From an uncultured Actinomycetes bacterium (lineage in GTDB: Bacteria; Actinomycetota; Actinomycetes; Streptosporangiales; Streptosporangiaceae), in contig CAVWLF010000001.1 of NCBI GenBank assembly GCA_963755815.1, positions 1-64,000 of the forward strand: 64,000 nt of DNA, in the 5' to 3' direction. Shown one piece after another: positions 38,253 to 53,443 of this stretch; position 1 is the first letter of the stretch; every line of letters starts with the position of its first letter. The notes under the pieces were generated by a model. That model ran no database searches. It saw nothing but the letters and a program-made list of their open reading frames with translations, and had not been told where the DNA came from. Made by a program: the position numbers and the translations under genes.

Positions 38253-38945
38253 TCAGCTGGCCTGCGGCCGGATGTCCTGCTTGATGGACAGCTTGCCGTC
38301 CCTCATCACCCCGACCCGCTGCGCCCGGCGCGCGATCGAGCTGTCATGAGTGATCAGGACCATGGTCAGCCCGAGTTCGCGCCAGAACTTCTCCAGCAGG
38401 GCGATGATCTCGTCTCTGGTGTCCTCGTCGAGGTTGCCGGTCGGCTCGTCGGCCAGCAGCACCTTGGGCTTCTTCACCAGCGCCCGGGCGATGGCAACGC
38501 GCTGCTGCTGGCCGCCGGACAGTTCCGAGGGCAGGTGCCGCAGCCGGTCGCCGAGCCCGAGATCGGTCAGCGCCTCGGCCGCCCGGGCCCGCCGCTGCGC
38601 GGCGGGCAGCCCGGCCGGCACCAGGGCCGCCTCCACGTTCTCCTGCGCGCTGAGCGTGGGTATCAGGTTGAACGTCTGGAAGACGAACCCGATCGACCTG
38701 GCTCGCACCGTCGTGACCTGGCTCTCACGGATGCTGGCTAGGTCCTGGCCGTCGAAGTCGACGAGGCCGGCCGTCGGCCGGTCCAGCCCGCCGAGTATCT
38801 GCAGCAGCGTGCTCTTACCGTGGCCGGTCGGGCCCTGGATGGAGAGCCACTCGCCGTCCTCGATGACCAGGTCGATCCCGCGCAGCGCGGCCACCGTGCC
38901 GCGGTCCTTCCGGTAGTCCTTGGTCACGCCAGTGAGCTTGTACAT
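38253..38945 (-). CDS. ABC transporter ATP-binding protein (MacB/LolD/FtsE-like)
   Basis: Walker [10 protein letters not shown], signature [15 protein letters not shown], Walker [13 protein letters not shown]. Start at [11 protein letters not shown] (ATG 38945). Confidence 0.9.
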
Positions 38946-39000
38946 CTGCTTCCCCTCGTCGAGGTCCGCGGAATCCGCCGCCGGGTCCGGCCGCTGCCCG

Positions 39001-40521
39001 TCACGCGACCCTGGCCAGCGCGTCCGCCGGGCGCAGCCGTGCTGCCCGCCAGCCGCCGAACGTCCCGGCGATGAGGCCGCCGGCCATGGCCAGGACCACG
39101 GCCAGCACGATGACATCGAGCGTTACCTGAGCGGTCAGGTGCACCGGCACGGTGTGGCTGGCATTCGCGGCGGCCCGCCGGAAGCCGCCGCCGAAGCCAC
39201 CGCCACCACCACCGAAACCGCCGCCGAAGCCGCCGCCACCGCCACCGCCGAACGTGCGCGCGCCGCCCGGCGTCGCGCTGCCGGTCGTCGGGCCGATCGA
39301 TGCCGACAGCGGCCCGGACAGCCGGGTTACCAGCGTGGCGCCGAGGAAGCCGAGCGCGACGCCGGCGATGCCGCCCGCCAGGCCGATCACGAGTGACTCG
39401 CCCATCACCTGGCTGACCACCCGCCGGCTCCGCCAGCCGAGCGCCTTCAGCGTGCCGAACTCCCTGACCCGGCGGGCAACCGCCGCCATCGTCAGCAGGC
39501 TGGCCAGCAGGAACGCGGCGGCGAGCACGGCGATGGAGAGCCAGCGGCCGAGGTTGCTGGCCAGGCTGGACGCGCTGGACAGCGAGCCGGTCACCTCGCT
39601 GGCCAGGTCGCTGGAGTTGGTCACGGTGGCCTTGGGCATGAGCCCGGAGATTTCCTGCGATACGGCGGTGATGTCCGACGCGCTGCTGGCGGCCACGTAG
39701 ACCGTGTTCACCTTGTTCTTCAGGCCGGCCAGGGCCTGCGCCCGGGCCAGCGGAATGTAGGTGTCCGCGGCACTGGCGCCGGCCGGCACGCCGACCACCC
39801 CGATCACCTTGAAGCTCTTCTTGGCGATCGTGATCGAGGAGCCGACCTTGAGCTTGGCCTGCTTGGCGTAGTCGGAATCCACCACGGCGACGTTCGAAGT
39901 CGCGTCGGCGGCGGTGAACGTCCGCCCGGCCGTGACCTTGCCCGAGCTGAGCGGGCCAAGCTCGCCCTGGGACAGGTCAACGCCGGAGACACTGAACGAG
40001 CTCGGGGTAAAAGCGCCGCGGAACCTTCCGCCTCCGCCACTTCCGCCTCCGCCACCACCGCCGCCGCCGAATCCGCCGCCGCCCCCGCCGCCGGCGTTGA
40101 TCGACGGGATCTTTCCGGTGATCTTGGTGTCGGTGAGGGTCAGCCCGCCCGCGGCGGCCGCGACGTCGTGCAGCCTGGAGACGGTCGTCACCGACGCCGA
40201 ACTCAGTGTCCCGAGCCCGAAGTTCCCCAGGGTGTCGATGTCAATCTTGGTGCCGGGCGCGGGCCGGGTCCGCGAGCCGGTTGTCCCCCGGAACCCGAAC
40301 GAGCGGGGCCCGCCGGCGCTGGCCGCCGGGGCCTGCGTGACGGTCACGTCCGTGCCCACCCCGTACAGCGAGTGCAGCACGGTGCCCTGCGCGGTCCGCA
40401 CCCCGGCCGACAGCGCCGCGACCGTGATGACCAGCCCGATCCCGACGGCCAGGCCGGACGCGATGAGAATGGCCTGGCGCATCCGGCGGCGTAGCTCGCG
40501 CCGCAGGTAGGTGAAGAACAA
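39001..40521 (-). CDS. ABC transporter permease, FtsX/MacB-type, with poly-Gly insertions
   Basis: N-terminal TM, a large extracytoplasmic domain, and a C-terminal FtsX 3-TM bundle (FGTLKALGWRSRRVVSQVMGESLVIGLAGG). Two long Gly/Phe runs (GGGGGGFGGGGGGGGGSGGGG and GGGGGGFGGGFGGGGGGFGGGF). Confidence 0.85.
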   Translation of the reverse strand: MFFTYLRRELRRRMRQAILIASGLAVGIGLVITVAALSAGVRTAQGTVLHSLYGVGTDVTVTQAPAASAGGPRSFGFRGTTGSRTRPAPGTKIDIDTLGNFGLGTLSSASVTTVSRLHDVAAAAGGLTLTDTKITGKIPSINAGGGGGGGFGGGGGGGGGSGGGGRFRGAFTPSSFSVSGVDLSQGELGPLSSGKVTAGRTFTAADATSNVAVVDSDYAKQAKLKVGSSITIAKKSFKVIGVVGVPAGASAADTYIPLARAQALAGLKNKVNTVYVAASSASDITAVSQEISGLMPKATVTNSSDLASEVTGSLSSASSLASNLGRWLSIAVLAAAFLLASLLTMAAVARRVREFGTLKALGWRSRRVVSQVMGESLVIGLAGGIAGVALGFLGATLVTRLSGPLSASIGPTTGSATPGGARTFGGGGGGGFGGGFGGGGGGFGGGFRRAAANASHTVPVHLTAQVTLDVIVLAVVLAMAGGLIAGTFGGWRAARLRPADALARVA

Positions 40522-40618: not shown

Positions 40619-42544
40619 TCAGGAACCTGAGGAGATCCTGGCCAGCGATTCTGAACGGACCCTGTAAGGAGTCTGCAAAATTACCGGGTTCCGGCGAGGG
40701 ACGCCGGGCCGGTATACCTTCACGCCGTCCGCGGTGTAGCCGAGCCGGAAGCCGGTCTCGTGCAGATAGCGGATGGCCGGCCGGGTCCGGCCATGCCATC
40801 TCCAGACCAGCACCCAGCCGATGTCCAGGTGGCGCGCGTCCAGCCGGGCCGCCGCCAGCTGCGCCGGGGTGACCTGCTGGCCGTGCTGGACGGCCACCAG
40901 CTCGGCGAAGAAGGCATGCTTCCTGGCCGCGGCCAGGGTGGGACCGGGTATCCGGGACAGGAAGCCCACCGCGCGCGGGTGCCCGTCGGCGGTCGCCAGT
41001 ACCTGCGCCTCCGGGTCGAACCGGCCTCCGTAGACCGGGGCTCCGCCGCGGAGGCCGTACGGGACGTCGACGACGAGTGACCCGGAATGGTCGGCGGCGA
41101 TCGGCCGGTCGACGGCGGGCAGCGAGGTCGGCATGGAACCGATGCGGGGATTGCCGGACCAGCCGGCTTCCAGCATTCCGAGCGCCAGCACGACGACGAT
41201 GGCGGGGGCTGCGTGGTAGCGCAGCCAGTTCACCGCCGCGCCGGCCAGCAGGGCGGCGGGCACCATGCCCAGCATCAGGATCCGGGCCGGCTCCCGGAAG
41301 CCGGACAGCCCGGGGATGCGGACGAACCAGGTGTACGGCATCACCGCGGACACCCGCACCCCGTCCAGGGTGGTGGCGTCGGGAACGTAGACGTGCGGGC
41401 CGATCCGCAGCACCGGACCTAGGGCCAGCGCGGCGCAGCCGAGGCACAGCAGCGCCAGCAGCCATGCGCTGCGCCGCCGCCAGGCGGCCAGCAGCCCGAG
41501 CAGGGCGAGCAGGCTCAGCACCAGGCCGTAGGTGGGAACCCCGTCGATGAGCCGGCCAGAATAGATGAGCCCGGCGGGGACGTGCAGCCTGAGCTCGGTC
41601 ACCCGCGGGGAAAGCTCGAACATGCCGGGGAGCGGGACCGAGTAGGCCAGGTAGGAGGTGCCCAGGTCACCCGCCGGGGTGGTGGCGCCGCCGGATCTGG
41701 TCTGCTGGGCGATGGCGATGAGCTGCGGGCTGGCGACCAGCAAGGTCACCAGCCCGGCCAGCGCGGCCGGCCACAGCTTCGCCACCACCGGACGCCGCAC
41801 CAGCCACGGCACCAGCGCCGCGCACGCCAAGATGACCACCAGCACGGCCATCTCCTGATCAGTCAGCAGCGCCCCGCCGGCCACCACCCCCAGGACCACC
41901 GCCCGCCGCCACCCCGGCCGCCGCGTCAGCCGCACCGCGGCCTCCAGCGCCAGCGGCAAGAACAACGCCCCCGCGGCCAGGTTCAGGTGATACCAGGACC
42001 GCCACGTCAGCATCGACGACAACCCGAAAAACGCCCCCGCCGCGATCGCGCCCACCTGCGAGGGCAGCCACAACCGCGCCACCCGGTACATCGCATAACA
42101 CAGCAACCCCGGCATCACCACCGACAGCAGGTTGTACGACGCACTCGGCCCGAACACCACCGTCACCGGCATCATCACCACGCCCGGCAGCGGCATCAGC
42201 GCATGCAACCCCAGCTGAGCCCCCGCCGGAGCATCGATATAACGGGTAAACCACGGATTACCCAGATGCTCCACCTGCCGCGCAACCCACCAGAACCCCC
42301 ACACGTAACTACCCGCATCACGCGTCGCCGGCAACCGGCCCGCCAGATACGTCACCCGCGGCCAGCTCACCGCCATCCCCGCCGCCACAAACCCAGCCAG
42401 CACCCCCAGCTGAACCGCCACCGGACCACGAACCACCCGGAAAACCCGCCACCACCCGAACCCGCCCGGCCCGGGACCACCCGCCGCAACGCCCGGCAGC
42501 CTCCGGCCCGGCTCCGGCCCCGACCGGAGCCCTGACCGCCGCAT
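40619..42544 (-). CDS. large polytopic membrane protein, putative GT-C-type glycosyltransferase (uncharacterised family), copy 1
   Basis: 641 aa with more than 10 hydrophobic helices. An Asp-containing first loop follows TM1 (LPATRDAGSYVWGFWW). A soluble C-terminal domain of about 200 aa. The GT-C function is inferred from architecture and neighbours only. Confidence 0.7.
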   Translation of the reverse strand: MRRSGLRSGPEPGRRLPGVAAGGPGPGGFGWWRVFRVVRGPVAVQLGVLAGFVAAGMAVSWPRVTYLAGRLPATRDAGSYVWGFWWVARQVEHLGNPWFTRYIDAPAGAQLGLHALMPLPGVVMMPVTVVFGPSASYNLLSVVMPGLLCYAMYRVARLWLPSQVGAIAAGAFFGLSSMLTWRSWYHLNLAAGALFLPLALEAAVRLTRRPGWRRAVVLGVVAGGALLTDQEMAVLVVILACAALVPWLVRRPVVAKLWPAALAGLVTLLVASPQLIAIAQQTRSGGATTPAGDLGTSYLAYSVPLPGMFELSPRVTELRLHVPAGLIYSGRLIDGVPTYGLVLSLLALLGLLAAWRRRSAWLLALLCLGCAALALGPVLRIGPHVYVPDATTLDGVRVSAVMPYTWFVRIPGLSGFREPARILMLGMVPAALLAGAAVNWLRYHAAPAIVVVLALGMLEAGWSGNPRIGSMPTSLPAVDRPIAADHSGSLVVDVPYGLRGGAPVYGGRFDPEAQVLATADGHPRAVGFLSRIPGPTLAAARKHAFFAELVAVQHGQQVTPAQLAAARLDARHLDIGWVLVWRWHGRTRPAIRYLHETGFRLGYTADGVKVYRPGVPRRNPVILQTPYRVRSESLARISSGS

Positions 42545-44700
42545 CCACGCCGGCCGCCACGGTCGAGCCGGCCCGGTCAGCGGCCGTCTCCGGTCCCGCC
42601 TCGCGGGAATCGATCACGCTCTGATCGGCCGCTTTCATCGCCGGGCAGCGCCGCCCGCGCGGTATACCCGCACGCCGCCCGCGCGGTATACCTTCACGCC
42701 GCCCGCACGGTGTACCTTCACGCCGTCCGGCCGGTATACCTTCACGCCGTCCGCGATGTAGCCGAGCCGGAAGCCGGTCTCGTGCAGATAGCGGATGGCC
42801 GGCCGGGTCCGGCCGTGCCATCTCCAGACCAGCACCCAGCCGATGTCCAGGTGGCGCGCGTCCAGCCGGGCGGCCGCCAGCTGCGCCGGGGTGATCTGCT
42901 GGCCGTGCTGGACGGCCACCAGCTCGGCGAAGAAGGCGTGCTTCCTGGCCGCGGCTACGGTCGGGGCCGGTACCCGGGACAGGAAGCCCACCGCGCGCGG
43001 ATGCCCGTCGGCAGTCGCCAGCACCTGCGCCTCCGGATCGAACTGGTCACCGTAGGCGCCAGTTCCGCCCCGGAGGCCGTACGGGATATCAACCACGAGT
43101 GACCCGGAATGGTCCGCGGCGATCGGCCGGTCGATGGCCGGCGGCTGGTGGCGATGGACCCAATGCCAGGATTGCCGGACCAGCCGGCTTCCAGCATTCC
43201 GAGCGCCAGTACGACGACGATGGCGGGGGCTGCGTGGTAGCGCAGCCAGTTCACCGCCGCGCCGGCCAGCAGGGCGGCGGGCACCATGCCCAGCATCAGG
43301 ATCCGGGCCGGCTCCCGGAAGCCGGACAGCCCGGGGATGCGGACGAACCAGGTGTACGGCATCACCGCGGACACCCGCACGCCGTCCAGGGTGGTGGCGT
43401 CCGGGACGAAGATATGGTTGCCGACCCGGATTACGGGGCCAAGGGCCATGACCGCGCAGCCGAGCCAGAGCAGTGCCAGCAGCCACGCGCTGCGCCGCCG
43501 CCAGGCGGCCAGCAGGCCAGCCACCGCCAGGACGCTCAGCACCAGGCCGTAGGTGGGGATCCCGTCGCCGATCCGGCCGCCGTAGATGAACCCCGGCGGG
43601 CCGTGCAGCCCGAACGCGGTCACTCGCGGGGAGAGCTCGAACATCCGGGGGAAGATGACGTCGTTCCCGAGATACGACCCGCCGAGGACGAGCTTCGGGA
43701 TAGTGGCGCCGCCGGATCTGGTCTGCTGGGCGATGGCGATGAGCTGCGGGCTGGCGACCAGCAAGGTCACCAGCCCGGCCAGCGCGGCCGGCCACAGCTT
43801 CGCCACCACCGGACGCCGCACCAGCCACGGCACCAGCGCCGCGCACGCCAAGATGACCACCAGCACGGCCATCTCCTGATCAGTCAGCAGCGCCCCGCCG
43901 GCCACCACCCCCAGGACCACCGCCCGCCGCCACCCCGGCCGCCGCGTCAGCCGCACCGCGGCCTCCAGCGCCAGCGGCAAGAACAACGCCCCCGCGGCCA
44001 GGTTCAGGTGATACCAGGACCGCCACGTCAGCATCGACGACAACCCGAAAAACGCCCCCGCCGCGATCGCGCCCACCTGCGAGGGCAGCCACAACCGCGC
44101 CACCCGGTACATCGCATAACACAGCAACCCCGGCATCACCACCGACAGCAGGTTGTACGACGCACTCGGCCCGAACACCACCGTCACCGGCATCATCACC
44201 ACGCCCGGCAGCGGCATCAGCGCATGCAACCCCAGCTGAGCCCCCGCCGGAGCATCGATATAACGGGTAAACCACGGATTACCCAGATGCTCCACCTGCC
44301 GCGCAACCCACCAGAACCCCCACACGTAACTACCCGCATCACGCGTCGCCGGCAACCGGCCCGCCAGATACGTCACCCGCGGCCAGCTCACCGCCATCCC
44401 CGCCGCCACAAACCCAGCCAGCACCCCCAGCTGAACCGCCACCGGACCACGAACCACCCGGAAAACCCGCCACCACCCGAACCCGCCCGGCCCGCCACCC
44501 CGCGGCCCGGCATCCGGCCCCCCGACCGGAGCCCTGACCGCCGCACCCACGCCGGGCGGCCGCACCTCAGCCGGCCGCACACCGGCCGGCGTTACCGGCG
44601 AGCTAGCCGCCGGACCCGGCCCGCTCAGTGCGGCCGGCCCGGGACCACCCGCCGCCACGGCCGAGCCGGCCCGGTCAATGGTCTGTGCCGGGCCGGAGGC
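40721..44700. repeat. about 2.02-kb tandem duplication (two gene-length units)
   Basis: Offset is 2021-2022 bp. The ORF track shows identical translated runs of 262 aa and identical 131-aa ORFs (41859-42254 = 43880-44275). This gives an identical block 41687-42472 = 43708-44493, flanked by visibly diverged sequence. Confidence 0.9.
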
Positions 44701-44736
44701 CAGCGGCCCCTGCCGGTCACTGTCCGCCCGGTCCAT
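42635..44736 (-). pseudogene. tandem paralog (copy 2) of the polytopic membrane protein, interrupted by a 1-nt deletion near 43150
   Basis: ORF 42955-44736 matches the N-terminal two-thirds of copy 1. The C-terminal domain (PPAIDRPIAADHSGSLVVDIPYGLRGG...) continues in another frame (ORF 42635-43846). Copy 1 has 30 nt (ATGCCGACCTCGCTGCCCGCCGTCGACCGG) where copy 2 has 29. Confidence 0.65.
42659..42754. repeat. 4 x 24-bp tandem repeat at the 3' end of copy 2
   Basis: Units start at 42659, 42683, 42707 and 42731 ((G/A/C)CGGT(A/G)TACC(C/T)(G/T)CACGCCG(C/T)CCG(C/G)). They encode (D/G)GV(K/R)V(Y/H)R(P/A) octapeptides. Copy 1 has a single unit (40709-40732). Confidence 0.85.
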
Positions 44737-44769: not shown

Positions 44770-45801
44770 TTACAGTCGTCCTTCGCTAACGGCCTGCTCA
44801 ATCCACGGAATGACCTCGTCGAGCATCTCGTCGAGCGTGGTGGTGGCCCGGTAGCCGAGCACCCGCCGGGCCTTCTCGACGTCAGGAACCCGCCGTTGCA
44901 CGTCGTGCTCGTACGGCTGCTCAGCCACGAAGCGGAACGGCACATCCGGGCCCTTGACCTTGCGCCAGATGAGCCCGGCCAGGTCGAGCACGGTCGTCGA
45001 CTCCGCGGTCGACAGGTTGAAGTCCTCATTGACCGTGCCCGGGTGCAGCAGCGTGGCGACGATCCCGCGGGCCAGGTCACCGCCGTAGGTGTAGTGCCGG
45101 ATCTGGTCGCCCTGACCGAGGATGCGCAGCGGATCCTGGCCCTTGAGCACCTTCTGCACGAGATCGGGAACGACATGCGACATGGCCAGCCGGACGTTTC
45201 CGGACAGCACCTCGGCCTGGCCAAGCGCCCGTCCCTCGCCGATGCCAACGCAGTTGAACGGGCGCACGATCGTGTACGGCAGCTGGTACTGGTCCCACGC
45301 GGCGCGGGCGAAGTACTCCACGGCGAGCTTCTGGAAGCCGTACGAGGAGCGCGGCGGCGGGATCCGCCGCTCGTCCCCCTCCCGGGACGGCCAGTTGTCC
45401 GTGCTCTCGTACACCATGGAGGAGCTGACATAAGTCATCTTTTGCAGCGTGCCGGATTTATGCGCCCGCAGCGCCGCGTCGCAACTCGACGCGATGATCC
45501 GCTCGTTAGTGGCGAGCAGATCGTAGGCATAGGCGTGAAAGTAGCTAATTCCTCCGATCATCGCGGCTCCGGCGATGAAGTGATCGCACCCTTCCAGTAG
45601 CTCGGCCAGCAAGCCGGCCTCAGCGGCGTCGCCTTCAACAAAATGGTGGTTCGGGTGGTCATCGAAACTATGCTTCACCGGCCCGTACTTGGAGAAGTTG
45701 TCGACCCCGACCACGGTGTGGCCCTGATCGAGCAACTCCTGAACCACGTAGCCGCCGATGAAGCCAGCCGAGCCGGTGACAAGAACCTTCGCCACGAACA
45801 C
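44770..45801 (-). CDS. NAD-dependent epimerase/dehydratase (extended SDR; UDP-sugar modifying)
   Basis: Rossmann motif VTGSAGFIGG, catalytic YGFQK (YxxxK), 343 aa. Confidence 0.9.
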   Translation of the reverse strand: MFVAKVLVTGSAGFIGGYVVQELLDQGHTVVGVDNFSKYGPVKHSFDDHPNHHFVEGDAAEAGLLAELLEGCDHFIAGAAMIGGISYFHAYAYDLLATNERIIASSCDAALRAHKSGTLQKMTYVSSSMVYESTDNWPSREGDERRIPPPRSSYGFQKLAVEYFARAAWDQYQLPYTIVRPFNCVGIGEGRALGQAEVLSGNVRLAMSHVVPDLVQKVLKGQDPLRILGQGDQIRHYTYGGDLARGIVATLLHPGTVNEDFNLSTAESTTVLDLAGLIWRKVKGPDVPFRFVAEQPYEHDVQRRVPDVEKARRVLGYRATTTLDEMLDEVIPWIEQAVSEGRL

Positions 45802-45852
45802 TCCTTCGTCGCAGTACTCGTATCTGGTCTCAGTACTCGCATGTAGGTCAGT

Positions 45853-46605
45853 TCAGCGCGGTGCCGCGGCATCGCTTTCCCGGCGCGCGGTCAGTTTCTC
45901 CAGGGTCAGCCGCGGGCCGAAGGCGAAGCGATACCAGTGCAGGTAGCCAGGCAGCCATTGCACCAAGTCGAAGCGGGACTCCCCGAACGAGCGATCCAGC
46001 CAGATGGTCGGGATCTCGGCGACCGGGCGTCCCAGCCTGGTGGCCTTCGCGGTGAGCTCGAGGCCGATCTCGAATCCGGCTCGCGAGTCAATTCCTACCT
46101 GCCGCACGAACTCGGTCGAGTAGGCCTTGAAGCTATTGGTGGCGTCCCTCGTGCCGACCCGGGCGAGCAGCCGCAGTGACTTGCCCGCCGATCTGGACAG
46201 CAGGCGCTTGAGCTTCGGGCCGCCAACCTGCTGGCCGCCCGGCATATACCGGGATGCGGCGGCGACCGCAACCCCCCGTTCCACTAGCCGGGCCAGGTCG
46301 TCGATCTGCCGCGGGTCGTCGCTGCCATCCGCCATCGTCACCACGGTGACCGGCGACCGCGCCTCGTCGAAGCCGGCCCGGATGGCGTTCGCGGGACCGG
46401 GACCGTAGCCATTGAGCACGCCGCGCACGCGCGCGTCCGCGCTGGCCACCTTCTCGATGTAGGGGACCGTGGTGTCGTCTGGCCGGTCGTAGACGACGAG
46501 TACCTCACACGGCGACGTCACCGCGGCCAGCACCCGGTCCAGGCACGGGCGAATGGCCTCGCCCTCGTTGTAGACCGGAATCACCACAGTGATCTCGGGA
46601 CTCAT
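45853..46605 (-). CDS. family 2 glycosyltransferase, polyprenyl-phosphate sugar synthase-like (DPM1/ArnC-like)
   Basis: ITVVIPVYNEGEAI, the DxD-type MADGSDDP, and a size of about 250 aa without TM segments. The ATG overlaps the dehydrogenase stop (ATGA). Confidence 0.88.
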   Translation of the reverse strand: MSPEITVVIPVYNEGEAIRPCLDRVLAAVTSPCEVLVVYDRPDDTTVPYIEKVASADARVRGVLNGYGPGPANAIRAGFDEARSPVTVVTMADGSDDPRQIDDLARLVERGVAVAAASRYMPGGQQVGGPKLKRLLSRSAGKSLRLLARVGTRDATNSFKAYSTEFVRQVGIDSRAGFEIGLELTAKATRLGRPVAEIPTIWLDRSFGESRFDLVQWLPGYLHWYRFAFGPRLTLEKLTARRESDAAAPR

Positions 46606-47816
46606 ACCCGCATGCCTCTTCCGGTCACGCCCCACAGGTCCGCGACCGGCTTGTCGGTGACCAGGTCGCGATATTCCGGATGAGGTGCGGCAACGATCAG
46701 CAGGTCGGCGCGCTCAAGCACCTCGGCCAGCGATGTGAACCGCTTATCGGTGATGTAGGGGTCCGAGCACAGGACCTCGTTCGCCTTGAGAATCAGAATT
46801 TTACGGAGCTTATAGGACAAACTCTCCCGCGAGTCATCGCTGCCGGCCTTGAAGCCCATTCCCAGGACCCCGACGGTGAGTGCGGCGAGATCGTAGCGGG
46901 TCTCCAGCCGGGAGACGAGGTAGAGCGGGAGACCCTCATTGATCAGCATTGCCGAGTGGCCGAGCACGAATTTGTTCTGGTTGAATGCCGCGAGCTGCAT
47001 CGTGTCCTTGAGCAGGCACGGGCCGGCCGCGAAGCCCGGCCCCGGCATATCGGCGGCCCGCGGATAGTCGTGCCGGATGGCCCAGCGTATCCGCTCAAAA
47101 TCTAGCCCGTAGTCATTCGCCATCATCCAGAACTGATTGGCCGTCGCGAATTTGATGTACCGCCAGGTGTTGGTGAAAAGCTTAGCGAGCTCGGCTTCCT
47201 CGGGTTGCAGCCGGACGACCTCATTAGTCAGGATGCGGAAGAACTTTTCCGCCCGGTCGCCAGCACGGTCAGTGCGGGCACCGACGATTTGCGGCAGGTC
47301 GAACAGCTCCTCCATGGCATGTCCCTCGGCGATGCGCTCGGGGCAGAAAGCTATATCCACGTCGATGCCGCGTTTGCTGAGCATGCGCTCGGTCAATGCG
47401 GTGACCGTCGGGTGAATGGTGCTGCGCAGAATGACGAGCTGGCCGTCGACCAGATATTCGGCGCACCGGTCCAGGGCGGCCGGCACCGCGCCCAGGTCCG
47501 GGTTGAGATGCTCGTCAACCGGGGTCCCGACGACGACAACGAGGATCTCGGCGGTACCGACCACCGCCGGGTCGGTCGTGGCCGTGAGCCTGCCTGCGCA
47601 CACGGCCGCGCGCAGCGGCTCCTCGGCACCTTCCTCGGTGAACGGCATGCGCGCATTGCTGACAATTTCTACCGCAGCCGCGTTGAGGTCATATAGGCGC
47701 ACCGATAGGCCGCGCGAAGCCAAGGCCACGCCAAAGGGGAGGCCGACGCGCCCGCAGCCGCCAATGATCGCCACATCGGCCGAGAAGGATGGGGGGGCCT
47801 GCTTGTCCGTTGGCAT
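46602..47816 (-). CDS. nucleotide-sugar dehydrogenase (UDP-glucose/GDP-mannose dehydrogenase family)
   Basis: N-terminal VAIIGGCGRVGLPFG Rossmann motif and a catalytic Cys context GFAAGPCLLKD. Start at MPTDKQ (ATG 47816). Confidence 0.9.
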   Translation of the reverse strand: MPTDKQAPPSFSADVAIIGGCGRVGLPFGVALASRGLSVRLYDLNAAAVEIVSNARMPFTEEGAEEPLRAAVCAGRLTATTDPAVVGTAEILVVVVGTPVDEHLNPDLGAVPAALDRCAEYLVDGQLVILRSTIHPTVTALTERMLSKRGIDVDIAFCPERIAEGHAMEELFDLPQIVGARTDRAGDRAEKFFRILTNEVVRLQPEEAELAKLFTNTWRYIKFATANQFWMMANDYGLDFERIRWAIRHDYPRAADMPGPGFAAGPCLLKDTMQLAAFNQNKFVLGHSAMLINEGLPLYLVSRLETRYDLAALTVGVLGMGFKAGSDDSRESLSYKLRKILILKANEVLCSDPYITDKRFTSLAEVLERADLLIVAAPHPEYRDLVTDKPVADLWGVTGRGMRV

Positions 47817-47850
47817 GCTGTTCCTCGTCCGTTGGCATGCTGTTACTCGT
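47807..47850. repeat. 2 x 22-bp tandem duplication spanning the dehydrogenase start codon
   Basis: CCGTTGGCATGCTGTT(C/A)CTCGT at 47807-47828 and 47829-47850, 21/22 identical. Each copy carries a CAT (ATG on the minus strand). Confidence 0.75.
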
Positions 47851-48067
47851 TCGGGCGCAGACATAACGTCATCCGGCGGCTAGTTAAACTGCTGCGGAAA
47901 ACTACCGCAGCAGTCCCGCACCGCCTCGATGGTCCGCAGGCACCGGATTTCCCCGATTCCTTCCGAAGCCGAAGTGTACCTACCGGCGGCGTAACGTAAA
48001 AATCCATTACTTTACCGAGATCTGCACTTGGGGCGCACTTGACGTACGTCAATATTCCAGTGGTGAT

Positions 48068-48709
48068 CTATTTACCCAGGCCGGGAGGCGGCGGGCAATG
48101 CTTTGCCAATAGCACCGGCGCCGAATCCGCCGGCCGGCCCGGAAGCGGCCCGCCGACCCGGTAGCGGCGGCCGTCGAGCGCCGAGCACCCCGACCAGCAG
48201 GTAGCTCGCCGTGGTGGCGAGCGCCGTGACGATGGCAAACGATCGTGCGTCCTGGCCGTACCAGCTGATCTCCGGCAGCGCGGCGAAGAAACCAGCCCGG
48301 CGAAGAGCCCGGCCCGCGGCGACACCAGCCGCCGCCCGATCGCCGCCACCCCGGCCGCCGCCGCGGCCATCGCCAGCGCCGACGGCAGCCGGGTGGTGAA
48401 CTCGCTGCTGCCGCCAAGCCGCACCACGACCCAGATGATCATGTAGTAGGCGCCGTGCACGGCGTCAGTGTGGCCCAGTATCCGGATCAGGGCGCCGAAC
48501 GGGCGGCGCACCGCCGCCAGGGTGGCGCCCTCATCCCGCCAGTACGACGGGGTAGTGATCCGCCAGAGCATCAGCGTGAGCGTGGCCGCCGGCGGGACGG
48601 CCCGCATCCAGAGCGGGCCGCCGGCGGCCTGATCCGGCGGCCGCCGGGCCGCTCCGGCCGTCTCCCCGGCTGGCCTGTCCAGGACGGCAGGCCGGCCAGC
48701 TGACGACAT
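48068..48709 (-). pseudogene. truncated, frameshifted N-terminal fragment of a GT-C mannosyltransferase-like (PMT_2/GT39-like) gene
   Basis: The first ~135 aa (TPSYWRDEGATLAAVRRPFGALIRILGHTDAVHGAYYMIIWVVVRLGGSSEFTTRLPSALAMAAAAAGVAAIGRRL) match the conserved start of actinobacterial membrane mannosyltransferases. Sensible sequence then continues in another frame (FFAALPEISWYGQDARSFAIVTALATTASYLLVGVLG) and stops after about 200 aa in total. Confidence 0.6.
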
Positions 48710-48796: not shown

Positions 48797-49801
48797 TCAG
48801 GCTCCGCGCATGGCCCGGATTGATTCCCGCAGTGACCCCATCGTGGCGAGCACGGCGGACGGCTCGTACCCGCAATGGGCCATGCAGTTGGAGCACCGCT
48901 CGTCCTTGCCGCGGCCGTAGGCGTCCCAGTCGGTGGTCTCGATGAGCTCCTTGTACGTCTTCACGTAGCCGTCGGCCATCAGGTAGCACGGCTTCTGCCA
49001 GCCCAGCAGGGAGTACGACGGGATGCCCCAGGCGGTGCAGCCGAAGTCGGTCTTGCCCTCCAGGAAGTCCAGGAACATCGGCGAGTGATTCAGCCGCCAG
49101 CGCTTCCGGTTGCCGTTGTCGAACGCCTTGCGGAACAGCTCCCTGGTCTCGGTCACGCCGAGGAAGTGCTCCTGGTCCGGTGCCTTCTCGTAGGCGTAGG
49201 CCGGCGAGATCATCATGTCGCTGACCTTGAGGTCGTCGTTGAGGTAGTCGAGCACGTCGATGACGGTCTGCGGGGTGTCGGTGTTGAAGACCGTCGTGTT
49301 CGTGGTGACCCGGAAGCCGCGGCGCTGGGCTTCCCTGATCGCCGCGACCGCCTCGTCGAAGACACCGTCCTTGCAGACCGATGCGTCGTGCCGCTCGGCC
49401 AGGCCGTCAATGTGCACGGTCCAGGCGAAGTACCGGGACGGCGTGAACTTGTCGATGTGCTTGGGCAGCAGCAGCGCGTTAGTGCACAGGTAGACGTACT
49501 TCTTGCGCTTGACCAGTTCTTCCACCAGCACGTGGATCTGCGGGTGCATCAGCGGCTCACCGCCGGCCAGGGAGACCATCGGCGCGCCGCATTCCTCGAT
49601 CGCCGCCAGCGCCTGCTCCACCGGCATCCGCTGCTTCAGCAGGCTGGCCGGCTGCTGGATCTTGCCGCAGCCGGCGCACTTCAGGTTGCACGCGAACAGC
49701 GGCTCCAGCTCAACGATCAGCGGGAACTTCTCCCGCCGGGCGAGCTTCTGGCGGGCTAGGTACGCCCCGACCCGGATGCTCTGGCGCATGGGGATACTCA
49801 T
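48797..49801 (-). CDS. hpnH: adenosylhopane synthase, radical SAM (HpnH)
   Basis: 334 aa. Radical-SAM cluster motif [11 protein letters not shown], and HpnH-typical N-terminus [31 protein letters not shown]. Located in the hopanoid operon. Confidence 0.92.
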
Positions 49802-51303
49802 GTTTGCCTTACCTCCTTGGGCAGGCCGAACCGGATGTTCTCAGTAGCGACGACGCGCTCGCTCACCTCGACCGGGCCGAGGCCGCCGAGCGCGGCGATA
49901 ATCTCGTCGACGACGGACGGCGGCGCCGAGGCGCCGGCCGTGAGCCCGATCGTCGACACTCCAGCCAGCCAGCCGAGCTCGATGTCCTCAGGGCCATCGA
50001 TCAGGTAAGCGGGCCTGCCAGCCCGCTCCGCCGTCTCCACCAGGCGGCGCGAGTTGGAAGAGTTGGCCGACCCGGCCACGAGCACCAGGTCGGATTCGGC
50101 GGCCACGGCACGGACCGAGAGCTGCCGGTTGGTGGTGGCGTAGCAGATGTCGTCGCTGCCGGGCCCGCGGGCGGCCGGGAACCGTTCGAGCAACTCCCCG
50201 ACGAGCCCGCCGGCCTCGTCGGCCGACAGCGTGGTCTGCATCAGGTAAGCCACCTTGCCGGGATCCTCGGGGCGCAGGCCGGCCACGTCGGCCTCGTTTT
50301 CGACCAGGACAGTTGAACCGGGCGCCTCGCCCAGCGTGCCCTCGACTTCCTCGTGGCCGGCGTGCCCGATGAGCGCGACCAGATAGCCGTCGGCGGCGAA
50401 CCGGCGGGCCTCCACATGCACCTTGGACACCAGCGGGCAGGTGGCATCGACGGTTTCCAGCCCGCGCCGGGCCGCCTCGTCCCGCACCGCCGGCGACACG
50501 CCGTGCGCGGAGAACACCGTCACGGCACCGTCCGGAACCTCGCTCAGCTCGTCCACGAAGATCGCGCCGCGGCGCTCCAGGCCCGCCACCACATGGGTGT
50601 TGTGCACGATCTGCTTACGCACGTAGACCGGCGGACCGTGCTGATCAAGCGCCCGCTCGACGATCTCGATCGCCCGCTCGACCCCGGCGCAGAAGGACCG
50701 CGGCCCGGCCAGCACCACCCGCCGCCGCCCGGCCGCGGCCGCCCAGCTGGCGAGCGCGGGCGCGGCCAGCCGCAGGGAGCGCAGCGCCGCGACCCCGCCG
50801 GCCAGGCCCGCCGGGCTCAGCAGCGGCCGCTGCGGCGTATCCGATACGGCCCGGAGCACGATCGCGGGCCGGTCGGCGGCCGCCGCGAGCAGCTGCGCCG
50901 ATTCCATATCGGCCACCAGCGCGCCGGTGCGCGCGAGCCGCTCCCGCTCGGCGCCGTGCACCAGGTGATCGACGGTGACGATCTGGCCGGCCCGGGCGTT
51001 CAGCCCGGCCCGCCGCAGCTCGCCCGCCAGCAGCGGGGCCGACGGGCAGCTGATGGCTGCCGCCCCGGAGCCACTGACCTGCGTGCCAACGACGAGGTCG
51101 CCGGGCGACAGGTCGCCGGAGAGGCCGCCGCCGGTTCCGGCGATGGCCAGCATCCCAAACGAGCCCGGGCGGAGCTTCGCCGCCGCCGAGGCCGATTTCA
51201 CCGGCCCGTAGCCGGTCTGCCTGACCTCGGCGCCGGAGCCGATGCCGCGCCGCACGGCGCGCGCTTCCAGCCGGAGCGGCGAGCAGACGAGCAGCCGGTT
51301 CAT
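49798..51303 (-). CDS. ispH: fusion protein: N-terminal nucleoside phosphorylase-like domain (HpnG-like) + C-terminal 4-hydroxy-3-methylbut-2-enyl diphosphate reductase (IspH/LytB)
   Basis: Residues ~1-190 look like the PNP_UDP_1 family ([14 protein letters not shown]...[10 protein letters not shown]...LRAVSD). Residues ~200-500 carry IspH motifs ([45 protein letters not shown]). Start at MNRLLVC (ATG 51303). The stop overlaps the hpnH start. Confidence 0.85.
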
Positions 51304-51385
51304 CGCATTCCTCCGCTCGGCCCGGCGGGCGCGCCGGGGGCCCGCCCGCCCGCGATTAGCCCGCCCGCGGTCAGCGACGGCCGGC

Positions 51386-53443
51386 TCATCCCGCACCGGC
51401 CAGGTAGCGGCCCAGCGCGCTGACCGGGAAGACCAGGCGGTACAGGTGGTAATTGATGTAGAAGTCACCCGGGAACCCGGTGCCGGTGTACTGCGGCTCG
51501 TCCCAGGTACCGTCCGGGCGCTGATGACTGGCCAGCCAGCGGACGCCGCGCTCTACGCAGGCCGCGTCATCCGCGCTGTCCCCGTCCCCGCTGGCCCCGT
51601 CCCCGTTGTTCCCGGCGCGGCCGGCCGCGCCGTGGCTGCTGCCGGTCTCGCCGTGGCCGGGTCCGGCGGCCGTGGAGCCCTGGCTCGCGGCCAGCAGCGC
51701 GAGCAGCGCCCATGCCGTCTGCGACGCCGTCGACTCGCCGCGCCCGGCCAGGCCCGGGTCGTCATAGGACCGCAGGTCCTCGCCCCAGCCGCCGTCCGGA
51801 TTCTGGTGCTCCCGGAGCCAGGCCACGGCCCGCCTGATCGGCGGCTTGCCGGGCAGCACGCCCGCGGCGATCAGCGCGGGCACCACCGCGCCGGTACCGT
51901 ACACGTAGTTCGCTCCCCACCGGCCGAACCAGGACCCGTCGTCCTCCTGCGCCCGCAGCAGCCAGGCCACGCCGCGGCGCACCGCCTTGCTGCCCGCCAG
52001 GCCCGCCGCGGCAAGCGCCTCGATGGTGTGCGCCGTGACATCCGCGGACGGCGGGTCGATCACCTCGCCGAAGTCGCAGAACGGCAGCTTGGCCACGATC
52101 TTCCTGGTGTTGTCCGCGTCGAAGGCGCCCCAGCCCCCGTCCCGGGACTGCATGCCGGTCAGCCAGCGGAGGCCGCGCGCCGTGGCCGCGGCCGACCGCG
52201 GCTCGGCGGCCGGGTCGACCCGCCGGAGCGCGAGCACCACCTCGGCGGTGTCGTCGATGTCCGGGTAGCCGTCGTTGTCGAACTCGAAGGCCCAGCCACC
52301 CGGGCTGAGCCCGGGCCGGCGGGCCTGCCAGTCACCCGGCCCGCGGATCTCCTCGCCGGCCACCCAGCGGGCCGCTGACGCCAGCGCCGGATGGTCGGCC
52401 GGAAGGCCGGCGTCGGAAAGCGCGATCATCGCCAGCACGGTGTCCCAGACCGGCGACTGGCATGCCTCCAGCCGCCTGGTCGGGCCGTCCGGCCCGTCGG
52501 CCCAGATGGTGAACCGGTCCAGCCCGGCCAGGCCGCGCTTGATCACCGGATGCTCCAGGCCGTAGCCCAGCAGGTGCAGCGCGATCAGCGAGTACACCCA
52601 GGGCGGCTGAATCCCGCCCCAGCAGCCATCGGCCTCCTGCCGGGCGATGATCCACTCCGCGCAGCGCCGCAGGGCCGCGGTCCGGACCGCGCGCATCGGG
52701 CGGGTTTGCTCGCCATGCCGGTGGTAGGCGTGCAGCACGCGGTCAAGCCCGCCGAAGAAGGCCGGCCAGCCCGGCCGCGGCAGGCCCCCGGCGCGGGCCG
52801 CGGCCGGCCCGGGGCCCGGATCAGGCGCGGCCGGCCACAGCTCGGGCAGCGCAAAGGGCAGCGAGCGGACGGGGCGCAGCGATCCGACAATGGTCAGCGG
52901 GACGATCGTCTGCCTGGCCCAGCAGGCCCAGTCCTGCACGTTCAGCGGGAACCAGCCGGGCAGGTAGATCATCTCCGGCGGCATCACCGGGAGCTCGTCC
53001 CAGGACCACTCGCCGAAGAGGGCCAGCCAGATCCTGGTGAACACGCGGGTGGCGGGAATGCCCCCGGCCGCGCGGATCCAGCCCGCCGCCCGCGCCATGT
53101 GCGCGGCGTCCGGCGAGTCGCCGGCCAGCCGCAGCGCGACGTAGGCCTCGACGGTGGTGGAGAGGTCAGCGTCGCCCTGGTAGTAGTTCGCCCAGGTCCC
53201 GTCCGCTCGCTGCCGGGACCTGATCCACCGCGCCGCGGCCGCCGTCTCCGGCTCCGCCCGGATGCCGAGGAACTCGCGGAGGAGCAGGTCCTCCGCATCC
53301 ATGGTGACGTTGGTCTCCAGCTCGCCCTGCCACCAGCCGCCGGGGTGCTGCAGGTCAAGCAGATGACGGGCGGCCAGGTCCAGCGCCGTCCGCGCGACCT
53401 CGGGCGCCGCCTGCCCGCCGGGGCGTGCCTGCGTCACCGTCAT
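51386..53443 (-). CDS. shc: squalene-hopene cyclase
   Basis: 685 aa. Catalytic DxDDTA context ([15 protein letters not shown]) and repeated QW motifs ([57 protein letters not shown]). Confidence 0.95.

Follow-up and report, generated by a model that had tools for sequence, protein, structure and literature searches.

A Tandem Pair of Predicted GT-C-Fold Glycosyltransferase Genes in an Uncultured Soil Actinomycete, Probably Homogenized in Part by Recurrent Gene Conversion

The Tandem Gene Pair and Its Mosaic Identity

The window analyzed here comprises 64,000 nucleotides (nt), i.e., positions 1 to 64,000 of contig CAVWLF010000001.1 (assembly GCA_963755815.1), from an uncultured actinomycete of the Streptosporangiaceae. 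It carries two adjacent genes on the reverse strand, the products of which are polytopic membrane proteins predicted to be glycosyltransferases of the GT-C fold (Table 1). A sequence-only reading of the window had described both genes as direct tandem copies and had suggested that an older duplication was recently subject to gene conversion or to unequal recombination, a proposal that is supported by synonymous divergence, segment-wise trees, paralog types shared with relatives and a second assembly. The tandem arrangement is borne out as well, with an offset of 2022 nt that changes to 2021 nt, and the net one-nucleotide deletion reported for copy 2 is indeed present in the window near position 43140, where it splits the reading frame. 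Copy 2 consists here of an open reading frame (ORF) of 593 amino acids (aa; 42955-44736) and a C-terminal part that is out of frame. For copy 1, a protein that is 100% identical (P0001) is annotated with 585 aa, the gene caller having placed the start later than that of the longest ORF.

A gapped alignment of positions 40701-42586 against 42720-44588 contains 155 differences over 1899 columns, and the divergence is mosaic rather than uniform. The longest exact match between the copies spans 792 nt at an offset of 2021. The perfectly identical core that had been noticed earlier thus exists, with a length of 792 nt instead of 786 bp. The identical 131-aa ORFs listed within it (41859-42254 and 43880-44275) exist too, but they are off-frame GC-rich ORFs inside the block and not genes. 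Similarly, the 3' half had been described as diverged and does contain diverged segments, but it is itself a mosaic with near-identical tracts, between which the identity drops to 70-88%. The perfect part of the second tract amounts to 170 nt (41190-41359 = 43211-43380), and the most diverged segment (41360-41681) encodes the loop after transmembrane (TM) helix 7, TM8-9 and the next loop. The copy pair is a mosaic with at least three tracts rather than a single core with diverged flanks.

Chance does not produce tracts of this length. When the 155 differences were placed at random 20,000 times and the longest identical run was recorded each time, the maximum was 209 nt, compared to the 792 nt observed. 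After removal of the block, the 170-nt second tract still exceeded all 20,000 permutations of the remainder (maximum of 101 nt).

The protein P0001 led to a second contig, L001 (ENA contig ERZ25039482:contig_5767; 1.41 Mb), which matches window positions 30611-52348 at 99.1% with 105 mismatches and 52 gap openings and, judged by its sequence, is a different assembly of a very close relative. L001 shares with the window both copies, the 792-nt block and the array of 24-nt repeats, and within both genes the two assemblies differ at a handful of sites only.

Table 1. Coordinates in the window, strand and properties of the gene pair, its tracts and segments, and the neighboring genes.
Feature	Position	Strand	Remarks
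Copy 1 (downstream GT-C glycosyltransferase gene)	40619-42544	-	641-aa ORF from ATG 42544; true start uncertain
Copy 2 (upstream GT-C gene)	42635-44736	-	2102 nt; frameshifted near 43140
Identical block, copy-1 side	41682-42473	-	codons 24-288; TM helices 1-7, including invariant D76 and TDQE motif
Identical block, copy-2 side	43703-44494	-	no differences between window and L001 within the block
Second conversion-like tract, copy-1 side	41148-41359	-	partner 43169-43380; 212 nt with 1 mismatch; dS 0.02
Third near-identical tract, copy-1 side	40735-40915	-	partner 42757-42937; 3 mismatches; dS 0.05
Most diverged segment, copy-1 side	41360-41681	-	partner 43381-43702; 70-88% identity; dS 0.48, dN 0.21
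Diverged C-terminal soluble-domain segment, copy-1 side	40916-41147	-	partner 42938-43168 (contains frameshift); dS 0.33
Segment S1, window pair	residues 25-287		dS 0 (0 changes in 263 codons), dN 0
Segment S2, window pair	residues 289-400		dS 0.48, dN 0.21
Segment S3, window pair	residues 401-455		dS 0.02, dN 0
Segment S4, window pair	residues 456-560		dS 0.33, dN 0.09
Segment S5, window pair	residues 561-612		dS 0.05, dN 0.01
Copy 2 frameshift site	43134-43147	-	window AGCCGCCGGCCATC, 14 nt
ATGA overlap of copy 2 stop and ancestral coupled start of copy 1 (MKAADQ...)	42635-42638	-	
24-nt tandem repeat, 4.5 copies	42649-42755	-	octapeptides (GVKVYRAG-like) at copy 2 C-terminus
NAD-dependent sugar epimerase/dehydratase	44770-45801	-	upstream; Pfam/NCBIfam matches
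GT2 polyprenyl-phosphate-sugar-synthase-like transferase	45853-46635	-	upstream; Pfam/NCBIfam matches
UDP-glucose/GDP-mannose dehydrogenase family enzyme	46602-47864	-	upstream; Pfam/NCBIfam matches
MacB/FtsX-type permease	39001-40521	-	downstream
ABC (ATP-binding cassette) ATPase	within 38253-39116	-	downstream

Synonymous Divergence along the Gene Pair

Synonymous (dS) and non-synonymous (dN) divergence were calculated according to Nei-Gojobori for five consecutive segments, S1 to S5, in copy-1 residue numbering (Table 1). The dS values of S2 and S4 in the window pair are at the level of an unconverted tandem pair from a relative, L003, for which dS amounts to 0.34, 0.34, 0.39, 0.43 and 0.11 in S1 to S5, respectively. 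Synonymous differences persist under purifying selection on the protein; the identical tracts therefore stem from sequence exchange. The two window copies lie equally far (dS 0.061) in S1 from L078, the nearest relative, so the exchange occurred later than the split from L078; given the same equidistance, either copy may have been the donor of the 792-nt block.

Paralog Types, Segment Trees and Recurrence in Relatives

In a scan of the GTDB species representatives, the family was found in metagenome-assembled genomes (MAGs) of uncultured, Streptosporangiaceae-type soil bacteria, with the best representative at 77% identity; tandem pairs are common and one triplet occurs. The gene order of the closest relatives is dehydrogenase, GT2, epimerase, GT-C gene, FtsX and ABC. 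A comparison of copy number, a check already named alongside the sequence-only reading, yielded either one or two GT-C copies at this locus: two in L002, L003, L079 and L078 together with L082, and one in L060, L080 and L081.

The diverged segments fall into two types that are common to several genomes. The 'up' type is recognizable by, e.g., SYLGNDVIFPRMF and AYGDQF, and the 'down' type by, e.g., GDLxxSYLAYSV and VYGGRF, and intact orthologs from other samples represent each of them (P0004 for up, P0002 for down). Both types are found at the same locus and in the same gene context in related genomes (L002, L003, L079, L078/L082) and are therefore older than the window genome. Neighbor-joining trees with bootstrap, built per segment, group the copies differently along the gene. 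The tree of S1 places the window copies together (100%) and likewise the L002 copies (100%). In that of S2, copy 1 joins L078_up (100%) and copy 2 the 'up' copies of L003 and L079 (54%), and the tree of S4 joins the two window copies to one another and to L078 (100%).

Long perfect runs are not confined to the window. The tandem partners of L002 share one of 1191 nt, L078_up and L082_dn one of 1490 nt (their contigs overlap at 362 of 362 nt) and copies 2 and 3 of L017 one of 1548-1569 nt. No such block is present in the pairs of L003 (longest perfect run of 64 nt) and L079 (80 nt), nor in about 22 tandem pairs at roughly 70% identity. Judged from these assembled sequences, homogenization appears to have occurred independently in at least three other lineages (L002, L078/L082 and L017). 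The blocks in all these lineages begin where the conserved membrane domain begins or close to that point, while their 3' ends differ. The 5' end can be placed to approximately 50-100 nt at best, because the unconverted L003 pair is already 90-97% identical there.

Two further arrangements were observed. At positions 8001-14064 of L017, a single MAG carries three tandem copies, of which copy 1 is approximately 72% identical to copy 2, and copies 2 and 3 differ near the 3' end only, outside the perfect block of approximately 1550 nt. In the single genes of L060 (7833-9815) and L080 (4304-6142), S2a and S4 resemble the 'up' type, whereas S5 and the C-terminal tail resemble the 'down' type, which is the pattern predicted for a deletion by unequal crossover between tandem copies, with a mosaic signal. 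These genes were considered as clean up/down crossover hybrids, a classification that was not retained: the distances per segment point in this direction, but their mosaic character keeps them from being decisive.

The Predicted GT-C Fold

Neither copy has a Pfam or NCBIfam match above cut-off, a profile of 37 family sequences gave no match among PDB sequences even at an E-value of 10, and PMT_2 matches only 7 of the 37 homologs, weakly. Fold comparison alone identified the protein. The AlphaFold2 model of copy 1 (predicted local distance difference test, pLDDT, 70.7; predicted template-modeling score, pTM, 0.74) comprises approximately 11 long helices at residues 31-459, followed by a mixed alpha/beta C-terminal domain, the first half of which is S4. 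Among PDB structures, every significant Foldseek match is to a GT-C enzyme (STT3, AftA, DPY19, ALG3/9/12, PglB, PMT1/2/4 and PimE), led by STT3 (6s7t_A; E = 7e-5) and AftA (8if8_B; E = 1.3e-4). The best probability is 1.00 and most exceed 0.95, with low template-modeling scores of 0.40-0.47. Based on this model, the protein is a GT-C-fold glycosyltransferase.

The conserved module of GT-C enzymes is catalytic and donor-binding, and it reportedly comprises the first seven TM helices according to work on ALG6. The acceptor site of solved GT-C enzymes is built from parts that correspond to the post-TM7 loop with TM8-9 and to a portion of the C-terminal soluble domain. In the present family, residue D76 (in an RD motif just after TM1) is invariant in the 37 homologs and follows the helix at 41-59/61-68 in the model, which makes it a candidate for the acidic residue that GT-C enzymes conserve in their first extracytoplasmic loop, and the identical block (residues 24-288) coincides with model helices 31-283. 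The published description of GT-C architecture (PMC10154233) distinguishes a module of conserved structure from a variable one, in addition to a luminal dome.

Assembly Differences and Reading Frames

Differences between the window and L001 recur, in both directions, as C/A (or T) at C[C/A]GG-type GC-rich motifs (47591, 47595, 43142, 42801, 40779, 40842, 34821 and others). This recurrence suggests a motif-linked consensus error in long-read data and may reflect methylation-linked basecalling errors. L001 also leans to T or A at positions with C or G in the window (51 versus 17 transitions). A parallel A/C change in both copies (40779 and 42801; window versus L001) was considered as proof of ongoing conversion and then downgraded, as such C[C/A]GG discrepancies recur elsewhere.

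The frameshift of copy 2 lies in a CCGG-rich microrepeat, i.e., the kind of site at which C/A discrepancies between the assemblies recur. L001 reads AGCCAGGCCATC there (12 nt, two bases fewer than the window) and is in frame, with a gene of 699 aa. The ortholog P0004 is intact at this site and reads S-R-P-A-I, which implies 15 nt and equals the window coding with one base more. We regard an artefact as the more probable origin of the frameshift. Alternatively, copy 2 could be a genuine recent pseudogene with a biological deletion of one nucleotide, which is possible, albeit not favored. The window sequence does contain the frameshift, by which the C-terminal domain is cut short, and a neighboring GT-C gene is a deletion remnant. 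The N-terminal tail of copy 1 is frame-disrupted as well in both assemblies, so that decay of the locus is plausible. On the other hand, the disruption is not reproduced in L001 or P0004, and the out-of-frame C-terminal part translates without stops in its own frame, as expected for either an artefact or a very recent event. Of the apparent frameshifts at the locus, at least one is probably due to an incorrect consensus at a CCGG-rich motif.

The stop of copy 2 and the ancestral coupled start of copy 1 overlap in ATGA (Table 1). In the window as well as in L001, this start and the membrane domain are in different frames, whereas the same arrangement is in frame in L082/P0002, L002 and L003; ATG 42544 offers an in-frame substitute start. 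In the surrounding region (window 42440-42640, reverse strand, versus L001 9733-9950), two 3-nt indels and several substitutions (42498-42518) are found. The C-terminal tail of copy 2 is also variable. Its octapeptide units, encoded by the 24-nt repeat, duplicate a conserved C-terminal strand of copy 2 and behave like a variable-number repeat in the protein tail, with four units in the window, five in P0004, and one each in L078_up and copy 1.

Gene Conversion and Its Alternatives

The reading that we consider probable is that of an old tandem duplication of a GT-C-fold glycosyltransferase gene for lipid-linked sugars, which was partly homogenized by repeated non-reciprocal homologous recombination, i.e., ectopic gene conversion. 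The latest event in the window genome would have copied approximately 0.8 kb spanning TM helices 1-7, with shorter tracts further 3', plausibly by RecA-type conversion, while selection may act against conversion of the acceptor-side segments. The likely outcome would be a pair of enzymes with different acceptors but a common donor, a polyprenyl-phosphate sugar that the neighboring dehydrogenase, epimerase and GT2 transferase would make. The gene conversion mosaic follows domain boundaries and is both recurrent and partial. A more speculative extension is that the donor-binding and catalytic module of TM1-7 is repeatedly reset to identity, while selection shields the acceptor-side loop and the periplasmic domain, resulting in 'one chassis, several acceptor heads'. 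The same cycle would then include re-duplication as well as deletions that leave a single hybrid gene (L060/L080-like). In a variant of this idea, a recombination hotspot may be located at the 5' edge of the homology.

Several points weigh against this interpretation. The shared donor and the different acceptors, although likely, are predicted by analogy. The mosaic is documented at the level of assemblies, at which a consensus or polishing artefact is conceivable, and the parallel A/C change at 40779 and 42801 could be a systematic basecalling artefact. In S2, the 'up' type has weak support across species (54% bootstrap), and in S4 the window copies cluster with L078, so that the order of duplication and speciation is blurred for the window lineage. 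Finally, L002 and L017 are short-read assemblies, and L078 and L082 originate from different samples, though with an identical overlap of 362 nt.

An alternative is that a recent duplication yielded identical copies and that the diverged segments were imported afterwards into one of them by homologous recombination from a related strain or species. The divergence between the window and L001 is patchy (e.g., 120 differences within 48-49 kb), which fits active inter-strain recombination; both window copies cluster together in S4, and copy number varies among close relatives. However, L003, L079 and L002 likewise hold tandem pairs of the 'up' and 'down' types at this locus, and P0004 and P0002 represent these types too; the dS of the diverged segments equals that of old paralogs, and each of the several alternating tracts would require an import of its own. 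We therefore consider import unlikely. Still less probable is an assembly or polishing artefact, in which the paralogs would differ throughout, or be a single copy, and the block would stem from repeat collapse, read mis-mapping or polishing. The source does resemble a long-read metagenome MAG, as L001 bears the name contig_5767 and many relatives are MFD long-read MAGs, some consensus error is suggested by the 52 gap openings and the recurrent C[C/A]GG discrepancies, and the L078 short-read contig ends where the repeat starts. Yet L001, with single-nucleotide differences elsewhere, has exactly the same duplication, block and number of 24-nt repeats. Moreover, the block edges are sharp and lie amid sequence of 70-88% identity, in which a read a few kb long has a unique mapping position, and lineages whose assemblies used other technologies contain equivalent blocks with other end-points. 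A further rival, in which the catalytic membrane module is under very strong purifying selection without recombination, would agree with the block being the most conserved part of the family, with many invariant residues, but it is refuted by the complete lack of synonymous differences over 263 codons. In the same region, the L003 pair has a dS of 0.34 and the L079 pair one of 0.31, and the window differs from L078 by a dS of 0.06.

Partial homogenization by gene conversion is a known phenomenon, of which this locus is a new example in a clear and repeated form. It offers a clean, statistically strong and independently replicated case of partial concerted evolution in an uncultured soil actinomycete, and it points to an uncatalogued GT-C family that is abundant, and often in tandem, in Streptosporangiaceae MAGs. 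The domain-wise pattern hints, in a testable way, at the enzyme parts that set acceptor specificity. The locus is also a practical trap, as short-read contigs break there and gene callers differ on gene length and start.

Relation to Known Cases of Concerted Evolution

The tufA/tufB pair is the classic case of concerted evolution in prokaryotes. A survey describes concerted evolution of duplicated prokaryotic genes by gene conversion (PMC6053082), and the present pair has several traits in common with it: paralogs are closer to one another than they are to orthologs over part of their length, the pattern recurs in several lineages, and identical tracts are bounded by divergence. In contrast to the surveyed cases, which are mostly core pathway genes, the copies described here are adjacent direct repeats that encode an uncharacterized enzyme of uncultured actinomycetes, and the homogenization is partial and along domain boundaries instead of covering the whole gene.

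Gene conversion also affects repeat families of Mycobacterium tuberculosis such as PE_PGRS pairs, according to three reports (PMC1762029, PMC12046097, PMC13061034). These are likewise high-GC actinobacterial genomes in which tracts are exchanged between closely linked paralogs, at loci that short-read assemblies tend to miss or break. The PE_PGRS proteins, however, belong to surface or antigen families in which conversion creates diversity, whereas in the GT-C pair it would mainly erase diversity in the catalytic module.

Gene Neighborhood and Putative Function

The GT-C pair is preceded by three putative operon partners (Table 1), which together span 44770-47864 on the reverse strand. Downstream, the permease and the ABC ATPase are kept in L001, L003, L079, L080 and L081. 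Linkage to the GT-C gene across 81 loci was found for the epimerase and the GT2 transferase in 21 and for the dehydrogenase in 17. A scan for promoters and terminators returned no promoter-like sites, and terminator-like sites at the level of the shuffled background.

From this gene context, a polyprenyl-phosphate-linked sugar is the likely donor for the GT-C pair, by analogy with lipid-linked sugar pathways. In mycobacteria, embC-embA-embB (and AftA) are adjacent GT-C paralogs that use one lipid-linked donor on different acceptors, and the emb operon has reportedly been the subject of domain-swap work. The pair in the window would resemble them in being adjacent GT-C paralogs with a polytopic N-terminal part and a C-terminal domain, which is predicted to be extracytoplasmic here as well. 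Unlike the Emb proteins and AftA, with which sequence similarity is not detectable (no PDB sequence matches), the present proteins are much smaller (approximately 640 aa).

A second parallel is provided by polyprenyl-phosphate uronic-acid and amino-sugar pathways, with RgtE and the galacturonic acid (GalA) transferases RgtA-D/F in rhizobia (PMC7663294) and with ArnC/ArnT. In the logic of the Arn and Rgt systems (PMC7663294), a nucleotide sugar is first oxidized or epimerized and then attached to polyprenyl phosphate; once flipped across the membrane, it is passed on by GT-C enzymes on the outer side. The window shares with Rgt and ArnC/ArnT a nucleotide-sugar dehydrogenase, an epimerase or decarboxylase, a GT2 enzyme that would load polyprenyl phosphate and one or more GT-C enzymes that would act outside the membrane, and its GT2 protein has an NCBIfam hit to the ArnC model. 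In contrast, none of the scores against the curated models of these pathways comes near the respective cut-off, and the host is a Gram-positive-type actinomycete without lipid A.

Directly upstream of the sugar operon lies a hopanoid block (window 48797-53443, reverse strand) with a squalene-hopene cyclase (SHC), a PNP_UDP_1-LytB fusion and a radical-SAM HpnH-like gene. A hopanoid-linked function was considered as a feature of the family and rejected: HpnH or SHC is nearby in 6 of the 81 loci, all of which belong to the closest clade. Scores for the HpnA and HpnB models were far below cut-off.

Two smaller observations concern the flanking genes. At window positions 48052-48709 (reverse strand), a remnant of a second, unrelated GT-C gene of the PMT_2 type is present, in which residues 1-177 and 584-603 remain. 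Compared to the 603-aa gene in L078, L002 and L003, approximately 400 codons have been deleted internally. The region of 48-49 kb is also where the window and L001 differ most (120 out of 217 differing columns). On the other side of the pair, the MacB/FtsX-type permease contains two long poly-glycine low-complexity inserts (GGGGGGFGGGGG...), located at window positions 39175-39252 and 40027-40093 (reverse strand) and encoded by GCC/CCG-rich tandem repeats.

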